This document shows, piece after piece, positions 4,126 to 37,200 of a stretch of DNA of 64,000 nt. Position numbers and translations under genes: made by a program. The DNA comes from a virus. The stretch spans positions 25,629 to 89,628 of the IMG/VR virus record IMGVR_UViG_3300028920_000056; one strand, written 5' to 3'. The notes under the pieces were generated by a model. That model had not been told where the DNA came from. It did not search any database and saw nothing but the letters and a program-made list of their open reading frames with translations. Position 1 is the stretch's first letter. Every line of letters begins with the position of its first letter.

Positions 4126-4407
4126 TCGAAAGCTAACTATATATGAAGAAAGTATATATAAAAAAGAAAGCTGATGATACATTTACAAAATACATTGCCA
4201 TAAGAAAAAGCAAATATGTTCAGAAACAAGGTATTTATAAATTAGTACGAGTTGATAAAGCGCTGATTGGTAAATCATGGGATACTTCTAAATGGGCTAG
4301 AAATATAATAGATAGATTAGATATCTTAGATGATAAAACTACAGATTATATACCAACTTCAAATGAAGCACATGATATAATAAAATCATTATTTGAGGGG
4401 TATAAAG

Positions 4408-5208
4408 ATGAAACTTAATGAATTTTTAAATGAAGCTAGAGGAAGTGGCTCATTCGACTATAGATTTTGGTTTTGGGCAAAAAAAGGCAGCCAATATGGT
4501 TTTGGTTATGCCAGACAAAATATCAAAGTAGACATAGAAAAACTAAATGCTCCTGCAGGAGAAGGTTCATCTGAGTTTGAAAAAATGCTTCATCCAACAG
4601 TACGCCAAGCAGTAGACGCATTAAACCAAATACAAAAAGCAAAAGAAGTAGAACAGAGTGATGAAGAGTATGAAGTAGTTGAAAAGAAAATAAAAGCAAA
4701 TACTAAACGAATACAAGGAGTTGCTGATTTATTTAGCTCACCTATTGTAATACATTGGTTAACAGATGATAAACCAACTCTTGTTACAATACCACATTAT
4801 AAGGATGGTGACGTAACAGATAGCGCTGGAAAACAAATTAAAGTTTTAGAAATCTTCAGAGATCCCGAAACTAGAGAATTTGTAACACACCATATTGATT
4901 GGAGCAAAGTAAATATAAATGATGAAAAGACTGGTGATACTCTAAATACTATTATGAGTAAATTCATACAAACAGTATTTGAAAGCGAGAGCAAAGGTAG
5001 CAAAAGAAAAGTTGCAAGATCAGCAGGACTTGAACAAATGAAAGATTTAAAATTTAAAACTGGTGATGTCGAAGTAATATCTTTTAAATCTGCAGATTAT
5101 AATTTGTTACCAAAAGATCTAATTGGTTCTAAAAAAATTATTGGCAAAATTAATGATATAAAAAAGAATTTTCAGAAGTTATTGCAAAAAGCAAGAGCTG
5201 CATTTTAA
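4408..5208 (+). CDS. putative internal head protein with capsid-targeting-like N-terminus
   Basis: SD GAGGGG then ATG 4408 gives MKLNEFLNE-A, resembling the T4 internal-protein capsid-targeting sequence MKTYQEFIAE. Confidence 0.45.
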   Translation: MKLNEFLNEARGSGSFDYRFWFWAKKGSQYGFGYARQNIKVDIEKLNAPAGEGSSEFEKMLHPTVRQAVDALNQIQKAKEVEQSDEEYEVVEKKIKANTKRIQGVADLFSSPIVIHWLTDDKPTLVTIPHYKDGDVTDSAGKQIKVLEIFRDPETREFVTHHIDWSKVNINDEKTGDTLNTIMSKFIQTVFESESKGSKRKVARSAGLEQMKDLKFKTGDVEVISFKSADYNLLPKDLIGSKKIIGKINDIKKNFQKLLQKARAAF

Positions 5209-5417
5209 ATGAATCGTTTAATGCTTAAGCATCCAAACAAAGACATGTATGCATTCTTTCTAAGCAAACTATATGATAAAGCTATCTTTATGTTTTATAA
5301 CTCTAGAAAGAAAGCAATTTATTATGGTACTGAAGTTGTTAAAGGTGTTTATAAAGAACAAGTAAATGATTGCCTTCTGAGATGAAGCATGAGATTTTTA
5401 AGTGGTATTTTAAATGA
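5209..5417 (+). pseudogene. frameshifted paralog of 5414..5638
   Basis: ATG 5209 to TGA 5417 spans 209 nt; restoring one T near 5370 gives ...VNDLPSEMKHEIFKWYFK*, versus ...VNDLPTEMKHEIFKWYFNK* in the next gene. Could be an assembly error. Confidence 0.6.
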
Positions 5418-6639
5418 ATATTCATAGAATGTATAAAAAACAAGAAGAAGAATCATATGCATTCATTTTAAAAAAAGATGAAAAAAATGCTTATCGCTGG
5501 TTGTTTTATGAGGGGGGAGGGATTTGCTTTTTGAAAAATATGCCAATTCATCCAATTACTAAAGTATATTCAGTAAAAGTGAATGATTTGCCGACTGAAA
5601 TGAAACATGAAATTTTTAAGTGGTACTTTAACAAATAATTATTTTAGGGAGTTAATATGAAAAAAGAATACAGCGCACATGAAAAGAAGATATTGAATCG
5701 TGTAAAAGACAAGATAAAGTTATCAGGCTCGCAGTGGCGTGCTTTATTAGAAGACATGAAAAATGGTGAAATTAAACGCGTTATATGTTTTAAATATAAC
5801 ATTCCACTAAAATATTATAAGTGGGTAAAAAGAATAGTTGGAGAAATGTAACTATGAATACGAAATTAACTGTAAAAAAAAGTGGTGATACTAATTTTGT
5901 ACCAGTGAAATATGCTGTTATAGAAATGGCAATTGGTGCAGACGCTGCTAATACAAATGTTGTAATACAAGTTATGAAACCTGGATTTGATACAGAAGCT
6001 AATTATAATAAATGGAAATCTACTTGGCATGGTGATGAATCTTCATTGGTTGGTAGAGATCCAATTGGAATAGTTGGAACTATTGGTGCTCTTGAAGTTG
6101 TTGCATTAAATACATTAGTTGCTTACACAGTTGCGACACCAAGTATGGATCAATAATGAAATGGTTGGCTTACGTTGGTAAAGATATTCTAAACAATCTA
6201 GAATTAGGGTTTGGTCCAATTTCAAGTTTGCACTCTGGGAATAGATCTGGTCGTTATGAAATTAACATAATACCAAATACTGGTGTATATTATCGTCAGA
6301 ATCGTGTAAAAGTTACAACTAATAGTAGGTCTAATCTTTGGTATGGGATGAAAGACAATAATATTTATGAAGATAAACATAAAGCTTTAGAATATTTGTT
6401 TACGGAATTATTTAAATGAAGAAAGGTGATATAGTATATTCATTTGGTAATACTGATAGAACTGGTAAGCCAGAATCAATCATTATTTCTAAGTTCATAA
6501 AAGAGATTGATAATACTTTTTCAACTGTTATAACATTAAAAATAGTTGGCGAAAAATTACCAAGAATTCCAATTGGTAAAAAGAGAGAAACTATTAGCCA
6601 TGAATTAAAAGATAAATATAAATTGATAAAGTTTTTATT

Positions 6640-7014
6640 TTGGTATCTGGACAGAAAAAAATGAGTAAAGATTTAGAAAAAAAGAATAACAAAGAATTAA
6701 TCTTAATAGATGAAACAGCTCAAAAAGTTATTAATTATTCAGAAGATGATAGACGGAAAGCAGATGATCTATATACTTATTATAAAAGTTTAATTGAAGC
6801 TGGAGATAAAAAAGGTGAGACTAGAGAAGGTCTTGCTAAAGCTTTAGAATTAAGAGAAAAATCAGTACAGAATTTGATAGAAATATTAAAAATAAAAGCT
6901 AAAGTGATAGAAAAGAAAATACTAGCAGAGTCTAGAAAAAATAATCCAATAGATAATTTGAGGAATGTTGGTTCTGATAATAGTAATTTAATTAATGAAA
7001 TAGAGGATATATAA
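6640..7014 (+). CDS. helical protein, possible terminase small subunit
   Basis: All-helical ~120-aa protein shortly upstream of TerL; assignment is positional only. Confidence 0.3.
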   Translation: MVSGQKKMSKDLEKKNNKELILIDETAQKVINYSEDDRRKADDLYTYYKSLIEAGDKKGETREGLAKALELREKSVQNLIEILKIKAKVIEKKILAESRKNNPIDNLRNVGSDNSNLINEIEDI

Positions 7015-9610: not shown

Positions 9611-10245
9611 AATGTTTGCTTGGAAAGATATAAAATTAAAAACTATTGACTCTAAACGTGGTTATTATAAAGCTTCTTTTGAATCGTTTGAACTTGTAGC
9701 ATTTAGTAGTAGGTGGATGAATAGAATTTGGTGGGAGTTGAGATTACAAATAAAAGATAAAAAATTTAATGTACCCCATAAAACTATATATCCCAGAGAA
9801 AAAGGATTCAGAGATTCTATAGCAAAATATTTTAATAATCAACCTGATAAGATAATACGCCACATTTTCGGTGAAGAAAGTCAAGATAAATAATAATACT
9901 TAAGGAGAACACTATGGCTGAGAAAATGACATTACACAGTTTCTTCAAAAATTTAAATTATTCAATCAATGAAGAGACAAAGAATTATTTGAACAACTTA
10001 AGTGAAGTCAATCTCAAACTTTTGATCAAAAGAATATATGAGAACAATGATCTTATAAAGAATGAATTGAATAGACAAGTAAAATTGACTAAATTTAAAA
10101 CAGTTCAAGATGTAGTTACAAATCTTAATTGCGAAGAAACTCTTGGTTTCATTAGTTGGATGAGTGAGAATATTTTTGGAGCAAATCAAGCTATTGAAGA
10201 AGAATTAGAAAAAATACTTACTAAATAATAAATATTGGGGATAAT

Positions 10246-10590
10246 ATGCATTTAAATCACAAAGAAAAAGTCGCTTATAGACATACTAAAGTATGGAAAG
10301 AAAAGCGACTAGCTGTGTTGAAGCGAGATGGTAACATTTGCCAATTATGTAATAGGAAATTAAGTTCAAAAAAATTACATGTCCACCATATAGATGAGGA
10401 TAAATACAAAGACATTGATGAGATTGAATATTTAGTAACTTTATGTAAAGCTTGTCATCGTCAATTTATCGAAAGATGGATAGTAAAATTAAGAAGTAAA
10501 TCATATAAACCAAATAAATATACTTTGCTTATTGAGCAAATAGTTAAAGAGTTTACGGTTGAATTAGATAGAGAGAAAACAAATGGCTAG
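10246..10590 (+). CDS. free-standing HNH endonuclease
   Basis: RDGNICQLC...LHVHHID...LVTLCKACH. Confidence 0.85.
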   Translation: MHLNHKEKVAYRHTKVWKEKRLAVLKRDGNICQLCNRKLSSKKLHVHHIDEDKYKDIDEIEYLVTLCKACHRQFIERWIVKLRSKSYKPNKYTLLIEQIVKEFTVELDREKTNG

Positions 10591-13500
10591 AAGAAAAAAT
10601 TCAGTAAACATTTCGCAAAGAGCTGCTGTCATACAAAGTTTTTTTAATAAAATCAATGTAACAAAAATACAAGATTTAGTAAGTGGACAACAGAATGTTG
10701 GAACTGAAAATACTTTTAGTATGCAGCGTAGTTCTTTTGAGAGCATTACTTCTATAGATCAAAGTAGAGTACAAAGATATCGTGAATATGAACAGATGTG
10801 TTATGTTCCAGAACTTAATGGTGGTTTAGAAATATATGCCGATGATGCTTCATTATATAATACAAATGATGAAGTAATTGAGTCTCTTTCCGACAATAAT
10901 GAGATAGCTGATAATTTGAGCGACTTATGGTTTAAAGCGTTAGATATGAATGCTAATCTTTGGCACATTATTTATAACACTTGTAAATATGGTGACGCTT
11001 TTTATGAAGTAATACCTGATGATTATACAAACCCTAAACGATTAAAATACATGAGATATATACCTCCCCAATATGTTACTAGAGAAGAGAAAGATGGTAA
11101 TTTAATACAATTTATTGTAAGAATTCCTGCTGAAGACACAAGAAGTAGTAATTATTCATATTATGCAAATGACCAAAATAGTGAAGAAGTTTTTTTAAAA
11201 CCATGGCAAATTGTTCATTTTAAATTAGATGACAAAGAATTTGAACCATATGGAAAATCTGTTTTAGAAACAGGTAGATTAGCATTTAAACAAATGAAAT
11301 TAGTTGAAGATGCTATGTTAATCTACAGAATAACTAGAGCCCCTGAGAGAAGAATATTCACTATACCAGTTGGTAACCTTCCATTTAGAGAAGCAATGAG
11401 AAAAGTAGAAGATTTTAAACAAAGATATAGAAAAACTCCATGGATTGATCCATTAACAGGTGAAATCAATTATAAAGCAAATCCTATGTGTTTAACTATG
11501 GACACTAAGATTGATTTATTAGATGGCAGGACTTTAGAACTACAAGAAATCATAAAGGAATTCGAAGAAGGCAAGGAGCTTTGGACTTATTCAATAGATC
11601 GCGAAAATGACAATCAAATAGTTCCAGGAAAAATCGAGTGGGCAGGACCAACTCGAAAAAATGCCGAGCTAGTAGAAGTATTTATAGACAACGAAAAATC
11701 TATACGATGTACACCAGATCATAAATTCTTGTTAAGAAATGGTGAATATAAAGAGGCCCAGTACCTAAAAGCAGGTGATTCTTTGATGCCTAAGTACACA
11801 AAAGAATCTTCTAAGGGTTATGAAATGGTGTATAATCCTAAAACTAGGAAATATATTCCAACTTATATGGTAGTTGCTAGACACACTCAAGAGAAAAAGT
11901 GGAACAGAAGATGGACCAAAAGAACAATACATCACAAAGATTTTAATAAAATAAATAATAATCCAGACAATCTTTTGATATTAGAAAATAAAGATCATGT
12001 AGGATTACATGGAGAATTAAGTAAAAGAAATTGGTCTAATCCAAAATATAGAAAAAAGCAATATGAGTCTAGGGTAAAAGCTTGGAGAAATAGTTCAGAC
12101 GAGAGAAGAAAGCTACAATCAGAATTAATAACTAAATATAATAAAAGCGAAAAGCATAAAAGAGTTACTATAAGTAGAAATAAAAGAATTTGGTCAGACG
12201 AGAAAACAAAAGAAAAAATATCTGCTAATATGAGAAAACCAAAATCTACTACTGAAAACATGAAGATTAAATTCGGTGAAAAATTTTGGTCTTTTATTGA
12301 TAACGCTATTATAAAATTACAAGAACAAAACAAAGTAGTTGAATATCTAAACTCAAACAAAGAATTTATATTTCATTTCAAAACTTTAACGCCAAGAAAC
12401 AACGAGTCTATTCACAGACACTTGTTAACTAAAGCTTTTAGACAAAAAGGTTATGACGGTTTTGAAGATTATAAGTATACCTTAATTGACGATAATAGAT
12501 TGTCATATGAAGATATTAAAGACGATCATGAAAATGGTTTGAGTCAAAAAAAGATTGCTAATAAATTTGATGTTTCAAGATCGGTTATCAAAAAGTTGCT
12601 CAGAAGAAATCATAAAGTTGTAAAAGTTGTTCGCTTAAATGAACGAGAAGATACAGGCTGTATTACTGTTGCAAAATACCACAACTTTGCAATATCAGAT
12701 ATCATCGTGAGAAATTCTATCAACGATGATTTCTTTTTTCCTAGAAGACCAGATGGTAGTGGTCCAGCAGTTGAAACTTTACCAGGTGGTATGCAATTAA
12801 GTGAAATAGATGATGCAAGATTTTTTAAAGAAAAAATTCTTAGAACTATGAGAATTCCGCTTGCTTATTTAACTGGAGAAATGACAGGTGATGTCGCAAA
12901 GACTTCATTATCTGCTATGGATACTAATTTTGCTAAAACTATAGAAAGAATTCAAAAGCAGATTATAAAAAGTTTAGAAAAAATAGCGATAATTGAATTA
13001 GCATTTAAACGTTTTACAATAGAAGATTTACATGATTTTAGATTAAATCTAACAGTTCCATCAAAGATTTATGAAATGCAAGAGTTAGAGACGTTTAATG
13101 CAAAATTGAGTGCTATTCAATCAGCAATAGCACTAGCCGACGTAGAAACAAATAAACCATTTTTACCAAGAGAATGGTTATATAAAAATATAATGAAATT
13201 TAATGAAGAAGAAATATCAACTATTAAGCTTATGCAACAAGCTGAAATGGCAGAAAAAGAGGAAGATAAAGCAAGAGCAGAAGCTACTGCCGGAGGCGAA
13301 ATGGGTGGAGGTATGATGCCAGGAGGAGGTATGCCACTAGGTGGTGGTATGCCACTAGGTGGTGAACTTGGAGCTGGTGAAATGGGAGCTGGCGAAATGG
13401 GAGCCGGTGAAATGGGAGCTCTAGAGGTTGCGCCAGGCGGCCCGGCTGCTGCTGGTGGTGAAGCTGGATTAGAAATAGCAAGTAAAATAATTAAAATAGC

Positions 13501-13717
13501 CGGAAGAGAATTTTTAGTTGAAAATGAGAATGATATTAGAGAAATAATAAAATTTGTTAAAGAATTCAAAGAAAACCAAAAGAACGCTAAAGATAACTTT
13601 AGAAAGAGGTCTAAGAAAAAGTTGTATGAAAATAAGTTTGATTTACTTTTCATCCAAGGTGAATTTAAAGGCCTCATAAGACGTGTGAAAAAGAACAAAA
13701 ATATGCTGAAAGATTAA
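10583..13717 (+). CDS. portal protein (T4 gp20-like) interrupted by an intein
   Basis: KYGDAF, PYGKSVLE, EDAMLIYRITRAPERRIF, DDFFFPRR...VETLPGG are gp20 hallmarks; Gly/Met-rich C-terminal tail. About 635 aa after splicing. Confidence 0.95.
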   Translation: MARRKNSVNISQRAAVIQSFFNKINVTKIQDLVSGQQNVGTENTFSMQRSSFESITSIDQSRVQRYREYEQMCYVPELNGGLEIYADDASLYNTNDEVIESLSDNNEIADNLSDLWFKALDMNANLWHIIYNTCKYGDAFYEVIPDDYTNPKRLKYMRYIPPQYVTREEKDGNLIQFIVRIPAEDTRSSNYSYYANDQNSEEVFLKPWQIVHFKLDDKEFEPYGKSVLETGRLAFKQMKLVEDAMLIYRITRAPERRIFTIPVGNLPFREAMRKVEDFKQRYRKTPWIDPLTGEINYKANPMCLTMDTKIDLLDGRTLELQEIIKEFEEGKELWTYSIDRENDNQIVPGKIEWAGPTRKNAELVEVFIDNEKSIRCTPDHKFLLRNGEYKEAQYLKAGDSLMPKYTKESSKGYEMVYNPKTRKYIPTYMVVARHTQEKKWNRRWTKRTIHHKDFNKINNNPDNLLILENKDHVGLHGELSKRNWSNPKYRKKQYESRVKAWRNSSDERRKLQSELITKYNKSEKHKRVTISRNKRIWSDEKTKEKISANMRKPKSTTENMKIKFGEKFWSFIDNAIIKLQEQNKVVEYLNSNKEFIFHFKTLTPRNNESIHRHLLTKAFRQKGYDGFEDYKYTLIDDNRLSYEDIKDDHENGLSQKKIANKFDVSRSVIKKLLRRNHKVVKVVRLNEREDTGCITVAKYHNFAISDIIVRNSINDDFFFPRRPDGSGPAVETLPGGMQLSEIDDARFFKEKILRTMRIPLAYLTGEMTGDVAKTSLSAMDTNFAKTIERIQKQIIKSLEKIAIIELAFKRFTIEDLHDFRLNLTVPSKIYEMQELETFNAKLSAIQSAIALADVETNKPFLPREWLYKNIMKFNEEEISTIKLMQQAEMAEKEEDKARAEATAGGEMGGGMMPGGGMPLGGGMPLGGELGAGEMGAGEMGAGEMGALEVAPGGPAAAGGEAGLEIASKIIKIAGREFLVENENDIREIIKFVKEFKENQKNAKDNFRKRSKKKLYENKFDLLFIQGEFKGLIRRVKKNKNMLKD
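11489..12715 (+). mobile_element. 409-aa intein with HNH homing endonuclease in the portal gene
   Basis: Block A C1-LTMDTKIDLLDG, block B CTPDHKF, block F/G EDTGCITVAKYHNFAISDIIVRN followed by Ser +1; internal HHKDFNKINNNPDNL...H HNH motif and an HTH-like segment. Confidence 0.92.
13283..13470 (+). repeat. Gly/Met-rich coding repeats (GGGMPL, GAGEM) in the portal C-terminus
   Basis: Tandem GGAGC(T/C)GG(T/C)GAAATG and GGTATGCCACTAGGT units; locally high GC. Confidence 0.8.
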
Positions 13718-13735
13718 GACTAGGAGGTCTTCTCT

Positions 13736-14995
13736 ATGGATTTAAAATATAGCCAAATGAGACAACTTACCAATTATAGCAATGATAAGATGGTAAATAT
13801 TATCAAAACTAAAATTGCTGAATCAGAAAACGCCGCTGTTGCTCTAGTATTTGATGATCAATTAATAATACTTGATGAAGATACAGATGAATTTCATGTT
13901 GCTAAATACAAAATCGACAACAGAGCTTTAAAGTTGACAAATTGGGAAAAAGTTAATTTAACTCCTGACAGTGATACTAAATTAGAATCTATTGCTAATA
14001 AATATTTCAACCCACTAAATGAAGAAGAAATTACTGTCAAAAATATGTTAGATGCTTTTAATTTGAAGTTTTCTGATGAACCAATTAAGGAGCTAATCAA
14101 CAATACTCACGTTGAAAAATGCGGTATAGTTTCATCAACACCAAAAATCAAAGCATTAAGAGAAGTCAGAAAAATACGTGGAGAGTTTTCAGATGATATA
14201 ACTGAATTATTTGAAGATGACAAAATTAAATCTTTGTTAGTTACTATTTCAGAAGATGGTCCAGTACAGAACACAATTTCTAAAATAGACTTTAAAAGAC
14301 CAGTTTCTGTTGCACTATTTGAATCTTCTTCAAATAAAGTAGTTAATTTATCAAAAGAAAAAGTCAACAAGCAACGTACAAAAAATATCAGAAGCAAAGT
14401 TAATAACTTGTGGACGTCACAATCATTCAAAAATGACTTCAGCGATTTGATTAAAGATATGAGTGAATCAGAAGATGTAAAAGAGACATTATCTAAATTT
14501 GTAAATCAACACAAAGAAATACTTCTAATTAGTGAAAGTGAATTAGAAGATTTAATTGTAAAAACTACACTTATGATTGGTGAAGCTCAGAATACTGAAG
14601 AACTAAGTGATATTTTTAAAGAATATATTAATATCGACGAAGTTCAACAAATGAAAAACGAATATATTAAAAGAAATAAAATCAATGAAGAAAATGAAAA
14701 AGAAGATGAAGAAGAAGAAATGCCACCTGAAGGGGAAGAAGAACCTGAGGAAAAAGATGAAAAAGAAAAAGAATCAACAATTGATGAAGATTCAATAAAT
14801 AAAATCTTAAAAGTTTTAAATAAAATCAAAGAACCCCTTGAAGATAAAACACTTGAAAGTAAATTTGTTAATGCTTTCATACAAAATTTAGAAGATGCAA
14901 AAGTCGGATCGATTGGGGAGGGAAAACTAAAAGAAGTTTTAGACTTCTTAAGTGCTATCTATGAAGATGCACAATCTAAAAAAGAGGAGGAATAA
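13736..14995 (+). CDS. putative prohead core/scaffold-associated protein
   Basis: Between portal and protease; helical and acidic; SD AGGAGG. Confidence 0.45.
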   Translation: MDLKYSQMRQLTNYSNDKMVNIIKTKIAESENAAVALVFDDQLIILDEDTDEFHVAKYKIDNRALKLTNWEKVNLTPDSDTKLESIANKYFNPLNEEEITVKNMLDAFNLKFSDEPIKELINNTHVEKCGIVSSTPKIKALREVRKIRGEFSDDITELFEDDKIKSLLVTISEDGPVQNTISKIDFKRPVSVALFESSSNKVVNLSKEKVNKQRTKNIRSKVNNLWTSQSFKNDFSDLIKDMSESEDVKETLSKFVNQHKEILLISESELEDLIVKTTLMIGEAQNTEELSDIFKEYINIDEVQQMKNEYIKRNKINEENEKEDEEEEMPPEGEEEPEEKDEKEKESTIDEDSINKILKVLNKIKEPLEDKTLESKFVNAFIQNLEDAKVGSIGEGKLKEVLDFLSAIYEDAQSKKEEE

Positions 14996-14997
14996 TT

Positions 14998-15378
14998 ATG
15001 GCATATAAATATGAAGAGTATAATGAAACTCTTAAAGAACAACTAGAATTGGCCGGCGTTCCTCTTGAAGAAGCTGAACCAACAGTTGATGTACCTGATG
15101 AAACTGATTTAGAAGGTGGTTTTGGAGCTAAAGAAACTCCAGAAGAAAAAGAAGAGCCAGAAAAGGATGAAAATGATGGAGAAATTAATGATGAATGGTC
15201 TTCTAAAATAAATAGTAAAGGTGAGTTTAAAATAGAATTTTACAACAATTTTGTTTATGTTTATTACAAAAATAGAAGAAGTCAAAGAATTTCTATAGAT
15301 CCTAAAGTAAAACCATATAAAAAAATAGTGAGTAAATTCGTAAACAAGATTTTTGATCATATTGAAAAAAAGAGTTAA
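14998..15378 (+). CDS. acidic prohead-associated protein
   Basis: N-terminal LKEQLELAGV matches the scaffold C-terminus LNEMLDLAGV; C-terminal FVNKIF tag. Confidence 0.45.
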   Translation: MAYKYEEYNETLKEQLELAGVPLEEAEPTVDVPDETDLEGGFGAKETPEEKEEPEKDENDGEINDEWSSKINSKGEFKIEFYNNFVYVYYKNRRSQRISIDPKVKPYKKIVSKFVNKIFDHIEKKS

Positions 15379-16025: not shown

Positions 16026-17003
16026 ATGAAAAATATATTGGCTGATATTGAACTTAATGACAAACAAGTTAGAGCCTTCAATGAAGAATTGAATTCTTGG
16101 AAAGACAAAAAAACAACACAAATAAAAGAAGAAGTAAAGTCTGAGTATGAAACAGAATATCAAGTCAAAAAAAGAGAACTTGAGGAAGAAAAAGCACAGT
16201 TTAAAGCTGAATGTGAGGCAATGGTTGAAGAAATAACAACTAAGATGCAGAAAGTAATGGTTGGTAGATTTACAACAGCTTTAAAAGGACTTTATGATGA
16301 ATTGAAAGTTCACGCAAGAAAAGATGTATTAAATGATCCTAGAATTCTTGCTCTAGAAGAAGTCAAGAAAGTTTGTTATCCACTAATGGGAGAAGATGTT
16401 ACTAAAGGATATGTTGATGAACTACAAAATGCTTTAACAATGTTAAATACTAAAGATGAAGAGATTGATAAACTTAAAGCACATTTGAAGTTAAAAGAAA
16501 TTACATCAGCATTATCTCCAAAGGTAGCAGAAGCTGTCCAAGTATTCGTAAGTGATGCCGGTACACCTGAAGAAGTCGTCGAAAGATACTCAAAATTAAG
16601 AAACATAGTAAAAGAAGCTAATGACGAAGATGAAGATGAAGAAGCATCATATGAAGACGAAGATAAAAAAGATAACAAGAAAAAAAAGAAGAAAAAAAGT
16701 AAAAAAGAAAAAGATGAAGACGAAGAAGATGATGAAGATGAAGAAGAAGACGACGACGAAGATTTAGAAGAATCTAAAAAGTCTAAAAAAGACAAAGATG
16801 AAGAAGATGATGAAGAAGACGACGAAGACGAAGACGAAGATGAAGATGAGGAAGAAGAAGAGGAAGAAGAGGAAGAAGAAGACCTCGAAGAAGACCTCGA
16901 AATTAAACCCTCTTTTCATATGAATCGAAAAGGCAATAAAAAAGAAGATTATGTTAACACCCTCAACGAGATGTTAGATCTCGCTGGTGTAGAAAGAGAT
17001 TAA
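16026..17003 (+). CDS. prohead scaffolding protein (gp22-like)
   Basis: Coiled coil with long D/E and K low-complexity tracts, between protease and major capsid gene. Confidence 0.75.
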   Translation: MKNILADIELNDKQVRAFNEELNSWKDKKTTQIKEEVKSEYETEYQVKKRELEEEKAQFKAECEAMVEEITTKMQKVMVGRFTTALKGLYDELKVHARKDVLNDPRILALEEVKKVCYPLMGEDVTKGYVDELQNALTMLNTKDEEIDKLKAHLKLKEITSALSPKVAEAVQVFVSDAGTPEEVVERYSKLRNIVKEANDEDEDEEASYEDEDKKDNKKKKKKKSKKEKDEDEEDDEDEEEDDDEDLEESKKSKKDKDEEDDEEDDEDEDEDEDEEEEEEEEEEEDLEEDLEIKPSFHMNRKGNKKEDYVNTLNEMLDLAGVERD

Positions 17004-20286: not shown

Positions 20287-21256
20287 GTGGAAAAATATAA
20301 TAAATGGTTCAAACAACCAGGATCAATAATTTATTATTATATGACAAAAGCAAAAAAAGATGGAGCTGGATTAGGAGTTACTGCGCATTATAAAAATAGA
20401 GAAGTAACATATTATGATGTCCATTTTAATTTTGATGTTGAAATGGTTTTTGAGAATTGTGAGATGGTCAGAGACAAAAATATAATTAATGCGTTAGAGT
20501 CATATTTCTCTCCAAGAAGAGCATGTATTTTGTGGGTATTTTCAGGCCAACATTATTATCACATTTGAGGATATAAATGCATTATTTAGTAGACATACAT
20601 TATAACACCACACAACAAGAGTATAATATACTATTTGCTAAATGTCATTTCAAAACAATAACTTGGCGTAGCAAAGGTGAAACAAAAGGCACCGATGTAT
20701 CAATTATTGATGAGACTTATTATAAATCTTCTGGCTATAAGTTTGATGGATATGTTGATGATGATGAAGCATATATAGAAGGTGGAGCCATACATTATGA
20801 GATAGACGAAGCCAAATTAGATTTTTTTGAAAGAATTTTTTGGCATGCAAAAATATCTAATAAATTTTCTATAGCAGGCTGAAAATGAATTTACACATTA
20901 CAATAGATTATGATTATGGAGACGGACAAGCTCACGCAATATTTTGGTTAGATACAAGTACGTATATAAATTTTCAATTTGGAGCAGAGGCAAAAATACA
21001 AGATATAGATAGTTGGTATGAAGGCGAGGGCTCACTTTCAAAAGTAAAAATAGATTATAGAACATTCCATATAAGTAAATATTATATTGATTCTGAATAT
21101 GAAGAAGAAACATTTGAATATGAATTAGAAAACTGGAGAAATGAACCAGAGCATTGCACTACCTTTGACAATGTGCAATTTACTCCACAAATTATAAAAG
21201 CTCTTGTAAAGAATAGGAGTGCTATATTTTCATCAATATTTCTTTCTATAGCATAA
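20287..21256 (+). CDS. three small hypothetical ORFs (20287-20568, 20577-20882, 20885-21256) with C-terminal IF-type tag
   Basis: Ends RRACILWVFS, AKLDFFERIFW, RSAIFSSIFL. Confidence 0.6.
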
Positions 21257-22357: not shown

Positions 22358-22475
22358 TGCGAAAACATGAAATTCTTCCTTTAATTGCATAGATAATTAT
22401 GAAAACAAAAGTCGCTCGTTGAGGACTTTAATTATTTTATAAGCGATGTCGCATGAGTCGCAAAGGAGAAACATT

Positions 22476-22924: not shown

Positions 22925-22953
22925 AAAGCCAGTACTTAAGTACTGGCTTTTTT
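22925..22953 (+). terminator. intrinsic terminator
   Basis: AAAGCCAGTACT-TA-AGTACTGGCTTT plus T-run. Confidence 0.9.
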
Positions 22954-23269
22954 GTGCTAAGATAAATGTATGAAAATTAAATTTTTAATTGGTGATAAAA
23001 AGTTAATAATAAAAAAGATATTTAAAGAATCTTCTGAAGAGTATGATAAATTTCTTTTACAAAAAAGAGATCTACTACGAGATACCATCTTCGATCTATA
23101 TGAAGACGGGTTCATTAAAACAATTGGTTATGGATTTGGATTTAGACTGCCAAATAGAGAAGATATATTTGGATGGTTTGAGCCAGAAACAAAAGAGGAC
23201 ATATTAAAAATAATTAATACTATTGAAGAAGAGTTAAAAGAAAAAATATATTTTACAAAGGAGTAAATA

Positions 23270-24793: not shown

Positions 24794-24812
24794 TCTTTAA
24801 TTTAGTAAATAA

Positions 24813-24838
24813 GAGGGCTAGTCAACTAGCCCTTTTTT
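24813..24838. terminator. intrinsic terminator between convergent genes
   Basis: AGGGCTAGT-CA-ACTAGCCCT plus T-run. Confidence 0.85.
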
Positions 24839-24841
24839 GTG

Positions 24842-25216
24842 TTAGTCAACGATTTCATATGGGACTTGTTTATCAAATTTTAAAGTAGGAATATCAAAAT
24901 AAATTATAAAACTAAAACCATAAACATTATCTATATCTTTTAATGGTATGTCGATATTTATATAAAGACTGTTATCATCTTCAATATAGTCTTCAATATA
25001 TATGATGGCGGTAGGAGATTCTTTTGATAATTTAAAGCCTTCATCTTTTATGAAAGGAATTAAATCTTGAGGAGCTAAATAATTCCAGAAATTTTTCAAT
25101 TTAATCTCTTGGTCTTCATAATATTCCGGATAAAATATTTTTTTAATAATAATACGAGAAAGTTCAGCTAATACATATTTCTTAATTTTTATCTCTAAAT
25201 TATCATGTTCATTCAT
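24842..25216 (-). CDS. hypothetical protein, the only convincing minus-strand gene
   Basis: Fills an otherwise non-coding gap; AAAGATAAT on the minus strand with ATG 5 nt after its GATA; carries SRIIIKKIF tag. Confidence 0.65.
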   Translation of the reverse strand: MNEHDNLEIKIKKYVLAELSRIIIKKIFYPEYYEDQEIKLKNFWNYLAPQDLIPFIKDEGFKLSKESPTAIIYIEDYIEDDNSLYINIDIPLKDIDNVYGFSFIIYFDIPTLKFDKQVPYEIVD

Positions 25217-26537: not shown

Positions 26538-26539
26538 TT

Positions 26540-28572
26540 ATGGTTGTTGAACACTATTCACAAATTAAACTTAATAAGCTTTATTATTTTTGGTTTACTG
26601 CACAACCTACTAAAAGTGCATATATTATATTTCGTGAATTTGAAAAAGAAACGTATATTTTTTATGTAGAAGTTTATGATGATAACAATGGCAAATATAA
26701 TACTTTAGTCCCAATTGAAGTAATTAGCAAGGGACAACTTATAGAAGTAGTAGATGACAAGTTTAAACTTAAGTTGGCCCTTAAGGGTTTGACAGAATGA
26801 AATTTGAAGATTTAAAAGTAGATATATTATATGTTGCTGATTATGATGGGCACTATCTCTATTTTATACCACGTAAACTACTCAGGGGTCAATTTTGGAG
26901 TATTAGTATGATTGACCATCAAAAGAATGTTGTTAGCTCGATGTTACATATAGATGTTTTTATGAAAGCAACTTCTGTGAGGAAAGCAACAAAAAAAGAA
27001 ATTACTACTCTAAGCTTGAAAGGGTTGTTGTGAACATAAAAATAAATTTTGAAGACTTAGAAGTTAATCATTTATATTGTTATGAGTGTGTTGATAATAA
27101 TTATCATTATAAAGGAGTTAGCAAATATTTTATAGTTCTTAAAAAGTTTATACGCAAAGAGAGTCATTTAGTAAGATGGTATAATGGTATGGGTGAAATA
27201 CATTATCAAGCATTATTCTCGGGATTTTTTCGTGAAGTTAAAGATATAAAAGAAAAGACTAAATTGATGCTGAAAGGATTGTTGTGAGATTAAACGTAGA
27301 TGACTATTTGTTAGTAAGATATGGAGACCCTCGCAAAACATCATTTTTTTTAGTTACAAATCGCAGTGCAGCAGATGACAATGTCGTTTTTGGAATATAT
27401 ATGTCGACAGATAGAGTAATCAATGTTAATGCAGCAATCTCTATTTATGCAATTGAAAGAAGTGACATATTTGTTAGTAAAATAACAAATAAAAAACTTA
27501 TTACTAAACTACAACTAAGAGGTTTAGTATGACAGAACTAGAAAAAGCAGTAAATACAAAGATTGGAGATTATTTAAAAATAGTAAACATTCCTAAATCT
27601 TTAAAGAGTGAATTATATTTTCTAGTTACTGAAATATATCCCGCTAAACCAACAACTAAAAACTTTATAAAACTTAGTGGAACTATGTTGTTAGAAGATG
27701 GCGACCTTGTAAATTTAGATTTGGCTGCTAGTTTTTTTGAAAAGAATTTTTTACGAATATTTCCAATAACTAAACAAACTTTAATAACTAAACTACAACT
27801 AAGAGGTTTAGTATGACAATATTTGACGATCTTAATGAAGAAGTTTATACAATACTAGATTCTGATGAAGAACTTAAAGGGCCCTTTTATTTAATAAAAA
27901 GAAAAGACACACATTTTTATTTTGGATCACTACTTACACTAAATAATAAAATTGAGCATGATATTGCAATACGAATAGATGGAAATATTGTTGTCAAAAA
28001 AATAATTAATAATAAGCTCATAACTAAACTTAAACTGAAAGGATTGGTATGATTAAAGGTGAGATTAAAATAAACGATTATCTTTATATTGATGACGATT
28101 TAGGAAGAAAATATTATTTAAAAGTTTCAAAATATCATTATCGTGAAGACACAGGTGAAATTTTTCTAATTAATGGAATAGGATATAATATTAAATATGA
28201 AAAATCAATTATAACTTTGTCCTTATGGATTAATGGAGACGCAACTGTAACTATCATAACCAATCTTAAACAAATAACTAAACTTAAACTGAAAGGAATA
28301 ATATGAAGCCATTACAACTCAATGGATATTATATGTATCGAGTAACTTATAAAGAGTTTCATTATATTAATTATTTCTATATTTGTCATATTGTTTCTAT
28401 CCCTCCGGCACATTACATAATTAATATACTTACTCATAACATAATTAAAAATACAATAGTACTAAACGAACATTCACCATTTTCACATAGTTGGTTTGAA
28501 CGAAATATTACTAACTTAAAAAGGATAAATGATAATAAACTTATAACAAAACTGAAACTAAGAGGATTATGA
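26540..28572 (+). CDS. array of eight translationally coupled 78-95 aa ORFs sharing a C-terminal (I)TKLxL(K/R)GL tag
   Basis: Consecutive genes overlap by ATGA/GTGA; bodies are dissimilar, last ~10 aa are conserved. Confidence 0.8.
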
Positions 28573-28748: not shown

Positions 28749-28761
28749 ATGGAGTAATACA

Positions 28762-29579: not shown

Positions 29580-29606
29580 GGTAGTCTCTTAAGACTACCT
29601 TTTTTG
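29580..29606 (+). terminator. intrinsic terminator
   Basis: GGTAGTCT-CTTA-AGACTACC plus T-run. Confidence 0.85.
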
Positions 29607-29857
29607 TGCAAAGATAAATATATATGACAAGTGTGACTTACTATTATATAATAAAAACCTATAAAGCTGGTGATTGGAAAGCAACATTTAGAATTACTAA
29701 TAAAGTACTAGATGAAACTTGGATATGTGAAAAATTAAAAAACAAAAATGACATTTTTAAATTTATATTTAATGATTATATAATAGACAATAAAATAGAG
29801 ATTAAAGTAGAAATTAAAATATGAAATATTATTATAAGTTGATAAAGGTAATATTTA

Positions 29858-30430
29858 ATGACTAGAGAGCAAATAAAGAAAAAATTAAATTTAAGTAGTA
29901 TTGGCGATTTTCTTGAAGGCAGAGCTTGGGTCCAGAAAAATGGTAAATTTGGTCATGTTGACAAAAATGGCAATATTACAACGCCAATAGTTTATGATGA
30001 CGTTGGCAATTTCAAAGAAGGCAGAACTTGGGTTGAGAAAAATGGTAAATGCGGTCATGTTGATCTAAATAGTAAAGTAACAACGCCTATAATTTATGAT
30101 AACGTTGGCAATTTCAAAGAAGGCAGAGCTCGAGTTAAGAAAAATGGTAAATGGGGTCATGTTGATAAAAATGGCAATATAACAACGCCTATAATCTATG
30201 ATGATGTTGGCTCTTTCCAAGAAGGCAAAGCTTGGGTCCAGAAAAACAATAAATATGGCCATGTTGATCTAAATGGCAAAGTGACAACGCCAATAATTTA
30301 TGACGATATTGGTTATTTCCAAGAAGGCAAAGGATGGGCGGAAATTAACAAAGTATATATTGATATAAATAAAAATGGTATACCAATTAAACATAAAGAT
30401 TTTTATAATTTAATAAAAGGATTATTCTAA
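29858..30430 (+). CDS. WG (KWG)-repeat protein
   Basis: About 4.5 copies of a 34-aa repeat F.EGRAWV.KNGKWGHVD.NG.ITTPIIYDDVG; 102-nt DNA repeat still visible. Confidence 0.9.
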   Translation: MTREQIKKKLNLSSIGDFLEGRAWVQKNGKFGHVDKNGNITTPIVYDDVGNFKEGRTWVEKNGKCGHVDLNSKVTTPIIYDNVGNFKEGRARVKKNGKWGHVDKNGNITTPIIYDDVGSFQEGKAWVQKNNKYGHVDLNGKVTTPIIYDDIGYFQEGKGWAEINKVYIDINKNGIPIKHKDFYNLIKGLF

Positions 30431-31718
30431 TGAAATATTTAGTTTGCATAAATCATGAAGGTATACAATGTAAAATGCAACTTGGGCATGAGCCTGAGAG
30501 GACAGAACTAGAAATTAAGAGTGCACAAAACAGAAATTTAATAAAAGAGATTTTCTTTAGAAAAGAAGATCCAAGAACAGATATATCTTTCATAAATGAT
30601 CAAAAAGAGATAGCGGCTGAAATAATGAAGAAATATGATGTTAGCACTGGCTATTATGGATATCAAATACGCAAGACTACAATAGGTAAACATATTGAAG
30701 TAGTAGTTGACATGCCTGAAAAAGAGTTTAATAAATCACAAGGTAGTTTAGAAGGGGCAATCAATATTTTACATCATACTACAAAGTTGATGTCTCCTAA
30801 AGCAAAAACAAAAGATGCAGCAAAGATTGTATTGAAGTGGATCAACAGATTAGAGTCTGAGAAGGAGATTGATTAAATGCTATGGGATGAATTCAAAGAA
30901 GGTGATATTGTTGAATATAAAGGATTACATGTTTTTAAAACATTTTTCTGGATAAGAAGAAAATTTAAGTCTGCTGAAAGGGCACTAGTTGTTGAGCTCA
31001 TTAAGTGGAATAAAAACTCTAGATTTCATATTCATAAAATAAAATCTTACTGGGGAAAAAATTGGTTTAATGAAGAATGGAGACACAAACAATATACGAC
31101 GTCAAGTAGAAAAGAATTATTTGATGAGATATTTAAGTCATGAAAAAAGTAATAATTTATGGCATAATAAAAAAACCGTTTCAGATATTAATAGCAAAAG
31201 CGTTTTATTCTTTTGATATTGGAGAAACTTCTGTTTCTGGTGAGAGATATGAATTTGTAGAAGATGATGTTATAATTGATGTTAACTGGGGATTTTATGG
31301 AGATTATGAAAATGGGGAGTTTGAAGAAATTCCTGATAATGTTAATGAAGCTGACACAATTGAAGAAGCTTATAGAGAAATAATAATGAGAATTATTTAA
31401 TGAAATATTTGGAGGCTAATTATGGTTAAACCACGAATTCTTGGAAAGTGGTATATAAACAATAAAAAAGATTATATGAATTTTGTTTTAGCTGTTGATA
31501 TTCGGGGTGGATATATTACTATTGGAATTAAGCCTCCATATACAGAAATTAATATGTATCATCTTGTTGATAAAAATGGTAGTGGCTACCTAACCAAACT
31601 TATTGATGCAGACGAATCAGAAATAAGTAGATTAAATAGTTTAATAATTAAATATATTTTTGAAGATTTAGTCGAGTTTAACTACTTTAGAGACTATTTG
31701 GAGAATTATGGAGGCTAA
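30430..31718 (+). CDS. four hypothetical ORFs (30430, 30877, 31140, 31422) with IF-type tag
   Basis: RNLIKEIFF, RKELFDEIFKS, YREIIMRII, NSLIIKYIFE. Confidence 0.6.
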
Positions 31719-31720
31719 TT

Positions 31721-32675: not shown

Positions 32676-34448
32676 GTGAGATTTTTAGAAGAAATGATTG
32701 GAATTGAAGAGAAAAAATTATTTAGAAAACTACTCCAAAGATATGGTTCATACATAAGAGATGTAGAAACTGTTGACTATATTCCAGGTATTAAGCCACT
32801 TTTTATTTTTCATTGGCTTGCAGAACACAAATATGTTATGTGCAGAAAGTGGCATATTGATTTAAATCAATCTCAATCAGGATTTAATATTTATGTGCCA
32901 AAATTTTATGACTTGTTGGAGAAAAAATGGTTCGGTGGAATGTATTTTACATCAGCCGCAGTTGTTAATAATAAAACGACATTTAAAAAAATATTAAATT
33001 ATTTAGCTGATGGAAATGTTGAAGAGGCAAACAAATTGTTTTATAAACCCAGACGAATAATAAGGAATATATTTAATGAAAGATAATGAAATAGTAGTAG
33101 GCGATTTATTATATTATCTCGATCGAGATAATATGAATTTTAATTATCTTTATTGTCGAGCTATTAATAAAAATAAATTATACTTTATACAATTTAAATT
33201 CTTAGTGAATATAAAAAAGTTAATTATTAGAGAAAGATATATCCTGACTAGAGTTGAGTGGAACGACAAACATCTTATTTTTAAATATTTCATAAAAGAT
33301 GATGAAGCTAAGCACCAACTAGTTGAGCGTATTTTTAAAGTGGAAATAGAAGATATAAGGTATTTTGATAAATGAAATATTTTGTAGTTGTACCAAATTT
33401 AAAGCCTCAAGTTATAATCTTTTTTGAATTTATAAAAGAATTGTCAGAAGCTCATAAATATCGTATAGGAAGACGGTGGTATACTAAAAAGATAGTAAAA
33501 TATAAAGCACGAGAAAATGGTGTCTATTTTGAAATACATATCTACTCACTTATTAAACGAGAGTCTGGCTATAAATTTATAAGACCACCAATAAATGGAG
33601 AAATATTTGATTCATTTTCAAAAGCAGCTAGATATCTTATTGTTAGGTTGTTTAAATAATGAAAAATGGAATTTGGTATGAAATAGATCAAAAAAACTTT
33701 TTTAGTATCGCACACCAGTATTAATACATTTTTCTAATGAAAGATAAAGTGTTTGGATTTGATTGGCCTTCTAATAAATTTAGAACATATTCTAGAGCAG
33801 CATTAGAACCTGTATCAAAAGGGTTCAATATGGACTAAAATAGGTACTGACCTTATAAGTAGAGAATTAATAAAATTTATATTTGGATGTAGGTAAACAT
33901 GACATTTAAAGAACTAAAATCTGGAATGATTCTATATGACTCTATTGGAGAAAAAATAATGTTTATTATTAATGTTAAGAATGAGAATACAACTGTTGAA
34001 TATGTGAGTGCACTTATTTTTTCTCCAATTATAACTACTTTAACATCTTATTTTATTGACATAATAACATGGCATGATCGTTATAGCAAAAGCTGCAAGC
34101 TTGCCACAAGTAAACAACTAAGAAAAGAAATAATGAAAATGTATGGGGCAACAACAAGTGATTAAGTTTAAAGAAGTAAAAAGAGGGATGTTTTTATGGC
34201 ACATACTTGATGATGAATATACTGCATATTTTTATGTCCAAGAAAAATCAACCGAAGGAGTTACTGGATTATGGGTTATATATAATACTTCAGATCGTAT
34301 ATTTGTTTATATACCAAATAGATTCTTCTCGAAGCGAACTTTTAGTATAAAATTAGATAAATGGAGTATTTTGTGGCGCATGAAATTGCAAGAAAGAAAA
34401 CACTTGTTCAGAATTATTTTTGATGCAAAAGAGTTTCATAAAGAATAA
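32676..34448 (+). CDS. cluster of small hypothetical ORFs (32676, 33076, 33372, 33899, 34143) with IF-type tag, plus a decayed copy at 33659-33896
   Basis: RRIIRNIF, KHQLVERIF, RYLIVRLF, RKEIMKMY, RKHLFRIIF; remnant ends SRELIKFIFGCR*. Confidence 0.6.
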
Positions 34449-34742: not shown

Positions 34743-35318
34743 ATGCACCCGCATAACATTCTCCTATTAGATGTAGACAATACAATAGTTATTGCAAAAG
34801 ACAATTATATTTACAAAATCATCAATGGAAAAGAAATAGCATTGACGCCTGCCGAATTTGCCCAAGAAGATATACACAATAATAGATATGATTTCAGAGA
34901 TTTTGAAGACCCAGATAGAATAAAAAGCGCAATTATGCATGGGCAACCAATAGTCTATGTACTAGATTTTATGAGAGATAAACTAGACAATGGTTGGGAA
35001 GTTGGAATCTTAACAGCTAGACCAAGAGGAAAGCTTATTAAGAAAATATTGCGAACATGGCTTTTTTGTAGAGATGAAGAAGGAAAATGGACACAAATTG
35101 GCGATAAACTTAAAAGAGTGTTTGCAATTGGTGAAGTCGGTGGTACTTGTTCTTCTAATGTAGAAAAGAAAATAGCAGTATTAAAAAGAATGTGTAAAGA
35201 ATATGAACATGTAATGTTCATAGATGATGATCAAAGTAATATAGAAGCAGCAAGACAATTAAAATTAGATAATCTTATTGCTATCAACACAAACGATTTA
35301 AAATTTATTGTTAGGTAA
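34743..35318 (+). CDS. HAD-superfamily phosphatase (PNK-phosphatase-like)
   Basis: LLDVDNTI (DxDxT), ILTAR, K, FIDDD motifs. Confidence 0.85.
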   Translation: MHPHNILLLDVDNTIVIAKDNYIYKIINGKEIALTPAEFAQEDIHNNRYDFRDFEDPDRIKSAIMHGQPIVYVLDFMRDKLDNGWEVGILTARPRGKLIKKILRTWLFCRDEEGKWTQIGDKLKRVFAIGEVGGTCSSNVEKKIAVLKRMCKEYEHVMFIDDDQSNIEAARQLKLDNLIAINTNDLKFIVR

Positions 35319-35641
35319 ATAAAATACTATCCTTAAAATTAACTACTCATAATGCGAAAGATAATCATATATGAGATTTAACGAAGTAAATAGTTCCGAA
35401 ATGTTATTTTGCACATATACTAATGTAGATATTTTTTCTTACATTATTAATAAATATAAAGGTAGTTGTGATTTATTAATAATAAAATTTTGGGATAACA
35501 TGTCTAAAGTATATGTAGTTAGACTCAGCAGTATTTCTAAAGTAGTTTTTGATAGTAAAAAATATATTTATATTAGAACACACAAAATCAATAAAAAAGT
35601 TTTATTTCAAAAAATATTTAGTAAAAAATGGAAGTATGTAG

Positions 35642-36154
35642 ATGAGCGATAAATTTGAATTATACGATGATTTAAATAATTTTGAGATAGATTTATTTAA
35701 CGAAGTTGATCAAGAAAAAATTAATATTGAAGGCGCACCATTTACTATTTGGAAATTTGATTTGGCAGCAACAAAAGAGACTGATGATTCTATACCAGAT
35801 GATGGCTTAGATCTAAATCTACTATATGGCGAAGCACTTCCTGAAAATTTTGTATATGAAAAAGCGCCACAAAAATTAAAAGGTAGTTATTTAGAACCTA
35901 CATGGACTCAAGATTTAATGGCTTTTGGTATTACTGAACCTGAAGAGATAAATATAAAATTTAATAAACAACAAGTAATTGATTTACTTGGTAGAACATT
36001 TCTTATTGGCGACATTATTAAAACATTTCATGAAAAACATTATATAATAGAAGATACATATGTTAGTGAAGAAACTGGTATTTGGGAATATATCCATATT
36101 AATGTAATAGCAAGAAAAGTAGATGTTTCACAAGTAAATTTGCCCGAGGCTTAA
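35642..36154 (+). CDS. head completion/neck protein (gp14-like)
   Basis: NLLYGEA, LMAFGITE, GDII motifs and position in the neck-tail block. Confidence 0.65.
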   Translation: MSDKFELYDDLNNFEIDLFNEVDQEKINIEGAPFTIWKFDLAATKETDDSIPDDGLDLNLLYGEALPENFVYEKAPQKLKGSYLEPTWTQDLMAFGITEPEEINIKFNKQQVIDLLGRTFLIGDIIKTFHEKHYIIEDTYVSEETGIWEYIHINVIARKVDVSQVNLPEA

Positions 36155-37200
36155 TTTGAAAGATTATATTTATCTATATAATGACAAATTAAGAGTACGA
36201 ACATTTCTTAGATGCACAAAGCATTCTAGAGGTAGATTACAAGTTTTAGATATTTTTATTGATGAAGCTGGTGTTTTTGAATTTGGAGAAATATTTGTTC
36301 CCAATCCAAATATGTTATATGACAAATACAGTTTAGTTCACAGGATATTTAAAGAATAATGAAAGATTTAAAAATGGCTTAATTTGAAAGAGGTTAGAGT
36401 TAAAAAATGAAATTCTTTTATCTTGTAGATGAAACTAAAAAAACAGATATACATTACTTATTTCAAATTGAATTGAGTGGTAAAATTGATCCTGATGGTC
36501 GCCATGAAGTAAAAATTATAAAAATTATACATTGTGAAGGATTTTACAAATATGAGCCTGGCGAAATTATTCATATTAAAAATGCTTTGAATGAGAAAGA
36601 ATTATTAAGAGAAATATTTAAAAATGGCTGAATTTGAAACTACAATAAAACTAGATTTTTCAGATGATAAATTAAACACTAAAATAGATAAAATAATAGC
36701 AGATTATTTTAAAGGTAAGATGACGCCTGAATTAAATAAAATTTTAAAAAAAGCATTGTTTTTAAAAAGTAAGCCAGCAAAACAAACTTCGTTGAAAAAT
36801 TTTAGAAATAAAAATGCTGGACTTTTTACTAAATTGTTGTTAGAAGACATGAAGAATGAAAATGCTATAGTTACATATAATGAGGAAGCTGAAAAAGAAT
36901 CTTTAAGCATTACTGTTGAATTAAGCAAAGAAGAGCAAAAACAGTTTATTAATTATCCAGATGATTTAATATTAAAAAAGATAGCAAAACTAGATGATAA
37001 CGAAAGTAAGAAAAAGTTTAATGTTGCCATCGAAAAAGGAGATTTTGAAGAATAATGTTAAAAAGAAATATTGCAACTAAAAATAAATTAAATTATATAG
37101 AATTTTTTAGTTTTTGTGAAGAGGAGGTGTTAAAATTTTAACAACGTACCCAATTTTTGCCGAATATCACTTTTATATTAAGCAGTGGCTAAAAACTATA

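Follow-up and report, generated by a model that had tools for sequence, protein, structure and literature searches.

A lineage-specific C-terminal Ile-Phe signature on accessory proteins of an uncultured T4-like phage

In phage T4, the capsid-targeting sequence (CTS) is an N-terminal peptide of about 10 amino acids (aa) that is removed by the prohead protease, the tails of gp43 and gp55 bind the gp45 clamp, and gp23 has the HK97 fold. Here we describe a C-terminal motif ending in Ile-Phe, referred to below as the tail or tag, which recurs on small proteins encoded in 64,000 nucleotides (nt) of viral DNA from IMG/VR record IMGVR_UViG_3300028920_000056. This stretch (the window) covers bases 25629-89628 of one 89.6-kb contig of ~29% G+C. 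The contig is a distant, uncultured T4-like myovirus, and its capsid protein is 25-37% identical to the gp23-type proteins that it matches.

The T-even CTS found on IPI-III and Alt resembles the tag in being a short conserved peptide on highly diverse, fast-evolving accessory and defence proteins of T4-type phages, as described in the consulted portion of PMC3012670. The tag differs in being C-terminal, in having no evident cleavage site and, according to a structure model, in being part of the fold in one family. A second counterpart is the cargo-loading peptide of encapsulins, which in the excerpt used here is short, usually C-terminal and enough by itself to bring unrelated cargo into a shell of the HK97 fold (PMC7355545). 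The likeness extends to the capsid protein of this phage, which is T4 gp23-like by its PHROGs major head protein match and its capsid-protein matches; however, the carriers here are not enzymes that share an operon with the gene for the shell, and the likeness is one of description. The sequence that targets MinD to membranes is also a C-terminal amphipathic helix, of two to three turns and transplantable in the portion of PMC8155659 drawn on here, whereas the tails of this phage are often acidic and have up to 19 further residues after the helix. Finally, T4 gp43 and gp55 carry short hydrophobic C-terminal motifs ending in Phe or Tyr, again on unrelated proteins of one phage, but with a different spacing, and the tag is absent from the replication module here. 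In the phage literature on conserved C-terminal helices and WG repeats (PF14903), we found no account of such a motif.

The motif and its position

The motif was originally predicted as 23 peptides on small open reading frames (ORFs), each of which we found in the ORF named for it. Their terminal placement holds for the most part: 20 of the 23 sites lie 0-18 residues before the stop codon, but three are N-terminal or internal and fall outside the C-terminal class. These are a hexapeptide near the N terminus of 22970..23266 (+) (at 22997-23023), another at residues 23-28 of 24842..25216 (-) (at 25133-25156) and an internal one at residues 37-42 of 30430..30876 (+) (at 30532-30555). The nine-residue pattern proposed at the outset proved too strict, fitting just 10 of the 23, whereas a six-residue core, [LIVF][LIVF]xx[IL]F, fits 20.

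Genes were called greedily, as the longest non-overlapping ORFs of at least 35 aa. Almost all genes lie on the plus strand, and minus-strand ORFs were removed except 24842-25216, which gave 114 proteins for the window and 159 for the contig. In the window, 18 of the 114 have the core within their last 25 aa, against 1.5 expected from 200 within-protein shuffles, not one of which reached 18. Over the whole contig, the core occupies this position in 25 of 159 proteins (about one in six), compared to 2.3 after within-protein shuffling. Shuffling the last 25 residues alone, which keeps the composition of the tail, gave 2.44 carriers in the contig (standard deviation 1.53; maximum 8 in 2000 shuffles), and reversing the tails gave 2. 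This is an enrichment of about 10-fold over both kinds of shuffle; together with the reversed tails, the shuffles rule out chance or composition as the origin of the motif. A looser pattern places it no more than 20 residues from the end in 33 of the 159 proteins, counting one transmembrane protein and the head-module protein 14998 discussed below. Occurrences near the N terminus are mildly enriched as well (7 against 2.2 in shuffles).

All 25 core carriers lie between 10.5 and 62 kb of the contig, and none of the 38 genes beyond 62 kb, the replication part, has the core. The block of replication and recombination genes starts at 42.7 kb of the window, downstream of the structural genes. Enrichment over replication-region genes as well as over within-protein shuffles bears out the original prediction, which had also reported that such tails are scarce in the replication block. 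With the same gene caller, the core was found in no tail of three control phages: 0/68 genes in 50 kb of Pelagibacter phage HTVC008M, 0/49 in Streptococcus phage GXN1 and 0/83 in T4, or 0/200 in total.

Would any amphipathic helix look like this? Among patterns of the form hydrophobic-hydrophobic-x-x-hydrophobic-hydrophobic, Phe is the last residue in 30 of 77 tail occurrences compared to 53 of 316 in protein bodies, and Ile is the penultimate residue in 32 of 77 compared to 81 of 316, with the same shift in relatives of this virus. The signal exceeds that of a generic amphipathic helix, and the Ile-Phe preference is specific to tails. A logo of 26 non-redundant proteins has K/R at -8, K/H/R/Y at -7, L/I at -5, I/F at -4 and K/E/R at -3, followed by I-F, which gives the tail consensus K-[HKRY]-x-[LI]-[IF]-[KER]-x-I-F, usually with 0-8 polar residues after it.

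Conservation within the motif falls on second codon positions, synonymous codon choice is that of the genome, and anywhere from 1 to 248 nt separate the Phe codon from the start that comes next. These properties rule out a DNA-level element, such as a promoter, ribosome site or recombination cassette, and the ordinary codon use indicates selection on the protein, in agreement with the initial claim of protein-level conservation. We conclude that the motif is genuine, a C-terminal signature that is specific to the lineage and kept at the protein level.

Carriers, their relatives and their bodies

Relatives were gathered as 17 viral contigs by capsid-protein match (15 at 67-78% identity, two at 39% and 29%) and eight by adaptor match; a search for relatives via the terminase gave no pattern match. 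The core is in the last 25 residues of 25 of their 392 distinct plus-strand proteins, and 25 of its 41 occurrences are in tails, while tails make up 10% of the residues. Core genes are 55-77% identical between the window and its relatives. By BLASTP, 1 of the 20 tagged window genes (14998 alone) has a match in relatives, and different tagged ORFs fill the same slots there: behind the capsid gene, around the adaptor gene, and in the interval from terminase to portal. The motif is on fast-turnover accessory genes in the structural arm, as was proposed from their hypervariability and their place among virion genes. Further afield, tagged ORFan 34143 matched nothing except itself among 5.8 billion clusters, and the ESM Atlas gave no lead for 33076. 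The carriers have a higher pI than other small proteins (median 9.2 versus 8.0, p = 0.012) and are rich in aromatic residues (17% versus 10%, p = 3e-8).

We read the tail, with a probability of roughly 40%, as a partly inherited, partly transferable handle for one common partner. On this reading, the C-terminal amphipathic helix would mark small, basic, aromatic-rich accessory proteins that turn over fast in the structural arm, which is probably transcribed late. It would be inherited in about half of the small carriers, which belong to one divergent family consisting of a beta-sheet and a C-terminal helix, and its transfer would account for the ends of phage WG-repeat proteins and for that of an extension on an NMNAT-like enzyme. 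The Ile-Phe face would be kept because otherwise variable proteins all use it to dock on the same conserved partner, perhaps a host hub or a phage component involved in assembly or in the core. If the tail is such a handle, this sequence rule picks out a whole functional class of ORFans in an uncultured phage lineage; the carriers would probably be an arms-race toolkit, and the portable peptide could be used to find the common target or to load foreign proteins.

The case for transfer comes from bodies that clearly differ. 29858..30430 (+) encodes a five-repeat WG protein of 190 aa (PF14903, WG_beta_rep; E 4.6e-44, 148.5 bits against a cut-off of 25.6), with HKDFYNLIKGLF at its extreme C terminus (30401-30427); PHROGs gave two weak matches only, to families of unknown function. 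Four paralogues upstream of the window also match PF14903, and all five proteins end in HKDFYKLIKGLF or a close variant. Among the 63 WG homologues returned by a search, the loose tail pattern is in the last 30 residues of 11: eight short phage-type proteins that start MT(K/R/S)EQIKKKL, as well as P0018, P0034 and P0013, the last of which matches through a repeat element and has no tail helix. Bacterial-type homologues and one phage-type protein (P0024) are without the tail. The structure model of 29858 has a mean pLDDT of 95.6, with ~98 for the body and ~69 for the last ten residues, a lower confidence that suggests a peripheral helix. This tail is conserved like the repeats (mean pairwise identity 0.71 versus 0.67). 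A second body is a 392-aa protein encoded upstream of the window (contig 10568-11746; L028 69-1244), in which an NMNAT-like domain (PF01467) is followed by a 160-aa C-terminal extension ending QEIIELIFKGK. The extension is absent from 19 of the 21 database matches of this protein, and one 89%-identical relative shares it. No fewer than two body types that clearly differ, WG-repeat and small beta-plus-helix, have the tail, which supports this part of the original prediction.

The claim that the bodies are unrelated holds for these two types, but about half of the small tagged proteins have an N-terminal G-[DK]-hydrophobic strand in common and make up a single family, which is very divergent. 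No two carriers were significantly similar by BLASTP, and neither PHROGs nor Pfam matched any carrier except 29858. Five paralogues with the strand motif IGKW align with eight invariant columns, GKW and the final IF among them, and their profile retrieves only those five at E < 1e-3. A profile of 21 family proteins from which the last 22 residues were cut detects more members, and its weak matches over-represent other tagged proteins. The full family profile, searched against 1.84 billion representatives, returned 11 proteins, all of them seeds or near-identical copies, which indicates that the family is confined to this lineage. Foldseek of a family model against PDB and BFVD found nothing at E <= 0.001. 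In VIA wide, the best Z scores (5.3-4.9, for EF-P domain I and the Lon specificity-enhancing factor) are below the level that the tool regards as meaningful and weakly indicate small barrels of the SH3 or Sm-like kind.

Such a family allows another explanation, namely that the tail is a structural signature only. In this case, a few fast-diverging small-domain families would have a C-terminal helix packed on a beta-sheet, Ile-Phe would be a core contact with no common partner, and the WG-repeat and NMNAT-like cases would be fusions or convergent caps. We consider this nearly as likely as the handle, and several findings weigh for it and against the handle. A G-[DKMNES]-hydrophobic-hydrophobic pattern (IGKW, GDIVY and others) is within the first 22 residues of 12/27 tagged but 3/63 untagged small proteins (p = 1.6e-5, for a pattern that was defined after viewing the sequences of this genome), and in the relatives, an independent set, of 9/32 tagged but 4/113 untagged proteins (p = 1.7e-4). 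This co-occurrence of N-terminal motif and tail argues for common descent of many carriers. Some of the members added by the tail-less profile end AIKGMF, AIKGIIK or LLLDATFL, so Phe is not obligatory. The AlphaFold2 model of family member 12386, made from a 21-row alignment (pLDDT 76.6, pTM 0.61), consists of four strands together with a C-terminal helix of 16 residues (72-87) that ends in the motif; the helix is modelled as confidently as the sheet (pLDDT ~80), which means that the motif may be mere fold core in this IGKW/GDIVY family. For about half of the small carriers, then, the model agrees with a single globular family with the helix in its core, which had been named as an outcome that would speak against a shared tag, but the WG-repeat proteins do not fit it. 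The high aromatic content is as expected of compact beta domains, and the distance from motif to stop ranges from 0 to 19 residues. Finally, the Phe position is L, M or F among 12 orthologues of 14998..15378 (+), a conserved head-module protein of 126 aa with SKFVNKIF at 15331-15354. Because of this variation we do not count 14998 as a true carrier, and its match is probably not a true tag.

Other findings do not sit well with a purely structural role. The tail is on a Pfam WG body whose bacterial members lack it, and in the model its helix scores lower in confidence than the rest of the protein; the preference for Ile-Phe is a property of tails, not of amphipathic patterns at large; and the control phages have none, although small beta-plus-helix proteins are common in phages. 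The lack of any significant BLASTP pair among the carriers points the same way. If the tail is a fold signature only, it still reveals a lineage-restricted, very fast-diverging family of small domains that makes up about a tenth of the genes of this genome and is invisible to pairwise searches.

Late expression, the head module and other candidate partners

Where the tagged genes are placed bears on what their common partner might be. In relatives, a short word, AAGATA[AT], often as GATAAATA, is kept 25-40 nt before the orthologues of the tube gene, 9914, the adaptor gene and 35642, and this conservation upstream of structural genes makes it probably a late promoter; we take GATAAATA to be similar to the late promoter of T4-type phages. 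Of the 71 AAGATA[AT] sites in the window, 20 are 0-60 nt upstream of a start, a zone that covers 10.8% of the sequence, and 17 of these 20 are before 42.7 kb. Sites precede the tagged genes or clusters 6416, 9612, 29624, 33372 and 35371, in line with the original remark that several carriers are directly behind this motif, and two sites follow terminator hairpins. As a word, AAGATAAW is not over-represented (41 versus 32), and its position and its conservation in relatives alone suggest function. The exact T4 late promoter, TATAAATA, has just 7 occurrences, mostly misplaced, and a scan for the sigma-70 consensus was not above shuffles. The carriers are probably co-expressed late with the virion genes, which fits the promoter placement but is not proven by it.

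At 29580..29626 (+), a terminator hairpin and T-run are followed by GTGCAAAGATAAAT, 6 nt and an ATG, forming a promoter-like cassette before a tagged cluster, and a similar arrangement is found at 22925-22972. At these two hairpins and a third (24811-24836), TTTTTTGTGC(A/T)AAGATAAAT follows directly, with the ATG 5-7 nt further on, a spacing that suggests leaderless or very short-leader transcripts. The third hairpin is bidirectional and adjoins the sole clear minus-strand gene.

Could the tail be an address for the prohead? The original prediction took it as a C-terminal capsid-loading signal that directs a library of hypervariable proteins to the prohead interior, to be co-injected. By analogy with T4, some thirty small, basic, hypervariable proteins would be packed through a helix that mimics the C-terminal helix of a head protein and would be delivered with the DNA as anti-defence cargo. 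We regard the address as doubtful, and delivery through such mimicry as a long shot of the same order. T-even internal proteins offer a model, since the part of the source consulted describes them as defence proteins of many kinds with nothing in common but a targeting sequence (PMC3012670). In the present phage, the carriers are basic, hypervariable ORFans scattered among the head and neck genes, and several are behind the probable late promoter. In addition, 13736..14995 (+), a conserved charged protein of 419 aa between portal and protease, ends in a tag-like helix, (I/V)LDFLxx(I/V)Y, that is kept in 14/14 orthologues. The head-core proteins, however, have a different motif in common. One 11-residue motif is shared by the C terminus of the scaffold (16950-17003, LNEMLDLAGV) and the N terminus of the 14998 family (14998-15060, L(E/K)E(M/Q)LELAGVP), and it is present in every relative that holds those genes (loci L001-L014). 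LNEMLDLAGVP is found in 25 scaffold- or 14998-type proteins and one protein of a distant locus (L016) but in no tagged ORFan, and it may be the true coat-binding or protease-docking element of the lineage. Moreover, the tag is at the opposite end of the protein from the T4 signal, which is N-terminal and clipped; [LI]-x-E within ~10 residues upstream of the helix was seen, on reading the sequences, in 4 of 20 tagged window proteins, which is near the chance level; and in the model of the main family, the helix resembles fold core. If prohead loading does turn out to be the function, the tail would do at the C terminus what the T4 targeting sequence does at the N terminus, and it would exemplify a wider, undescribed practice in which large phages address-label their accessory proteins.

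As a separate observation, the C terminus of the 13736 family (14930-14995) has LDFL followed by (I/V)Y-E and resembles the tails of T4 gp43 (SLDFLFG) and gp55 (SLDFLYEAND), which may be coincidence.

A common partner could also be a membrane or a clamp, and we think both unlikely. A MinD-type helix would place the proteins on the inside of the host membrane, and the tag shares with such helices a hydrophobic face at i, i+1, i+4 and i+5 with flanking Lys or Arg, as well as the transplantable C-terminal placement described for the MinD membrane targeting sequence in the portion of PMC8155659 used. Its polar face, however, is often acidic (position -3 is K in 7, E in 6 and R in 5 of 26 tails), several tails have no net positive charge, the helix of the main family is modelled as packed on its domain, and a single weak helix on a monomer binds membranes poorly, as is stated for MinD in the same portion (PMC8155659). 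On balance we give membrane targeting little credence. Binding to a sliding clamp, or to another replication or transcription hub, has less still to recommend it. The T4 record does show gp43 and gp55 with short hydrophobic C-terminal motifs that have an aromatic end, but their spacing, L-x-F-L-F, is not the hydrophobic-hydrophobic-x-x-I-F of the tag, and none of the 38 genes in the replication part is tagged. We know of no precedent for dozens of ORFans binding a clamp.

Tagged genes and neighbouring features

Tagged ORFans start near the left end of the window with 4143..4418 (+), which encodes 91 aa without a PHROGs or Pfam match and has AHDIIKSLF at 4368-4394, 7 aa before the stop. 5414..5638 (+) encodes 74 aa with KHEIFKWYF at 5603-5629. 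Its tandem paralogue, 5209..5417 (+), has an intact tail, LPSEMKHEIFKWYFK (5370-5417), that is out of frame through a 1-nt gap relative to 5414; the frame break sits in a T-run and may reflect a gene that has recently begun to decay, a misassembly or a site of frameshifting. Two further ORFans follow, 6156..6419 (+) (87 aa, KHKALEYLF at 6375-6401) and 6416..6664 (+) (82 aa, N-terminal KKGDIVY, KYKLIKFLF at 6614-6640), and then 9612..9893 (+), of 93 aa, between the terminase large subunit and the conserved 9914, with DKIIRHIF at 9846-9869.

In the middle of the window, 20287..21256 (+) contains the adjacent tagged ORFans 20287, 20577 and 20885, with tails at 20518-20541, 20814-20840 and 21215-21241. 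The first gene past the terminator and AAGATAAAT cassette is 29624..29824 (+), a tagged ORFan of 66 aa with KNDIFKFIF at 29744-29770. Beyond the WG-repeat gene are 30877..31143 (+) (tagged ORFan, 88 aa, N-terminal KEGDIVEY, RKELFDEIF at 31108-31134) and 31422..31718 (+), an IGKW-family member of 98 aa with SLIIKYIF at 31638-31661 and four paralogues upstream of the window. Past these genes, 32676..33659 (+) contains the adjacent tagged ORFans 32676, 33076 and 33372 (tails at 33051-33074, 33310-33336 and 33630-33653), and 34143..34448 (+), of 101 aa, has KHLFRIIF at 34398-34421. The tagged ORFan 35371..35652 (+), of 93 aa, is immediately after AAGATAAT and has KKVLFQKIF at 35593-35619, while 36156..36631 (+) contains tagged ORFans 36156 and 36407, with tails at 36324-36350 and 36596-36619.

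These genes are interspersed with structural genes that PHROGs names as the large terminase (7697), the portal (10583), the head protease (15381), the capsid protein (17034), the adaptor (31721), the sheath (38027) and the tube (40836); the scaffold is at 16026. The portal ORF (10583-13717) encodes 1044 aa and has HNH-endonuclease-like matches at residues 404-500. In relatives the portal ORF encodes 1024 aa in one case and ~630 aa in others, and this variation in length, together with the HNH-like matches, indicates a variable in-frame insertion, either an intein or a homing endonuclease.

Several other genes may be of interest. A polynucleotide kinase, an RtcB ligase and an RNA ligase are encoded at 34743-35318, 57508-58785 and 61220-62272, which we take to be a tRNA-repair set like the one that T4 uses against anticodon nucleases. 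An Hsp20-type small heat-shock protein is encoded at 22446-22919 (PHROG 432, E 2.3e-12), amid accessory genes. A paralogous family (1769, 21263, 21687, 25235, 25504, 25647 and 25787) has a common N-terminal K(E/D)TKNLLKD motif; its short members at 25.2-26.0 kb overlap each other and have Cys- and Trp-rich C termini. The replication block has two more small paralogue sets, 50235/50892/51328 (50235-51726) and 55789/56078 (55789-56383), and the Ile-Phe tail is in none of them. At 26540-28572, a tandem array of eight small paralogues (78-95 aa) all end ...L(K/R)L(K/R)GL(V/L/I), with the stop codon of each gene overlapping the start codon of the one after it (ATGA or GTGA). The codons for K/R-G (AGAGGT, AAAGGA, AAGGGT) are also the ribosome-binding site of the next gene, so the C-terminal peptide of this array reflects in part a DNA-level constraint.

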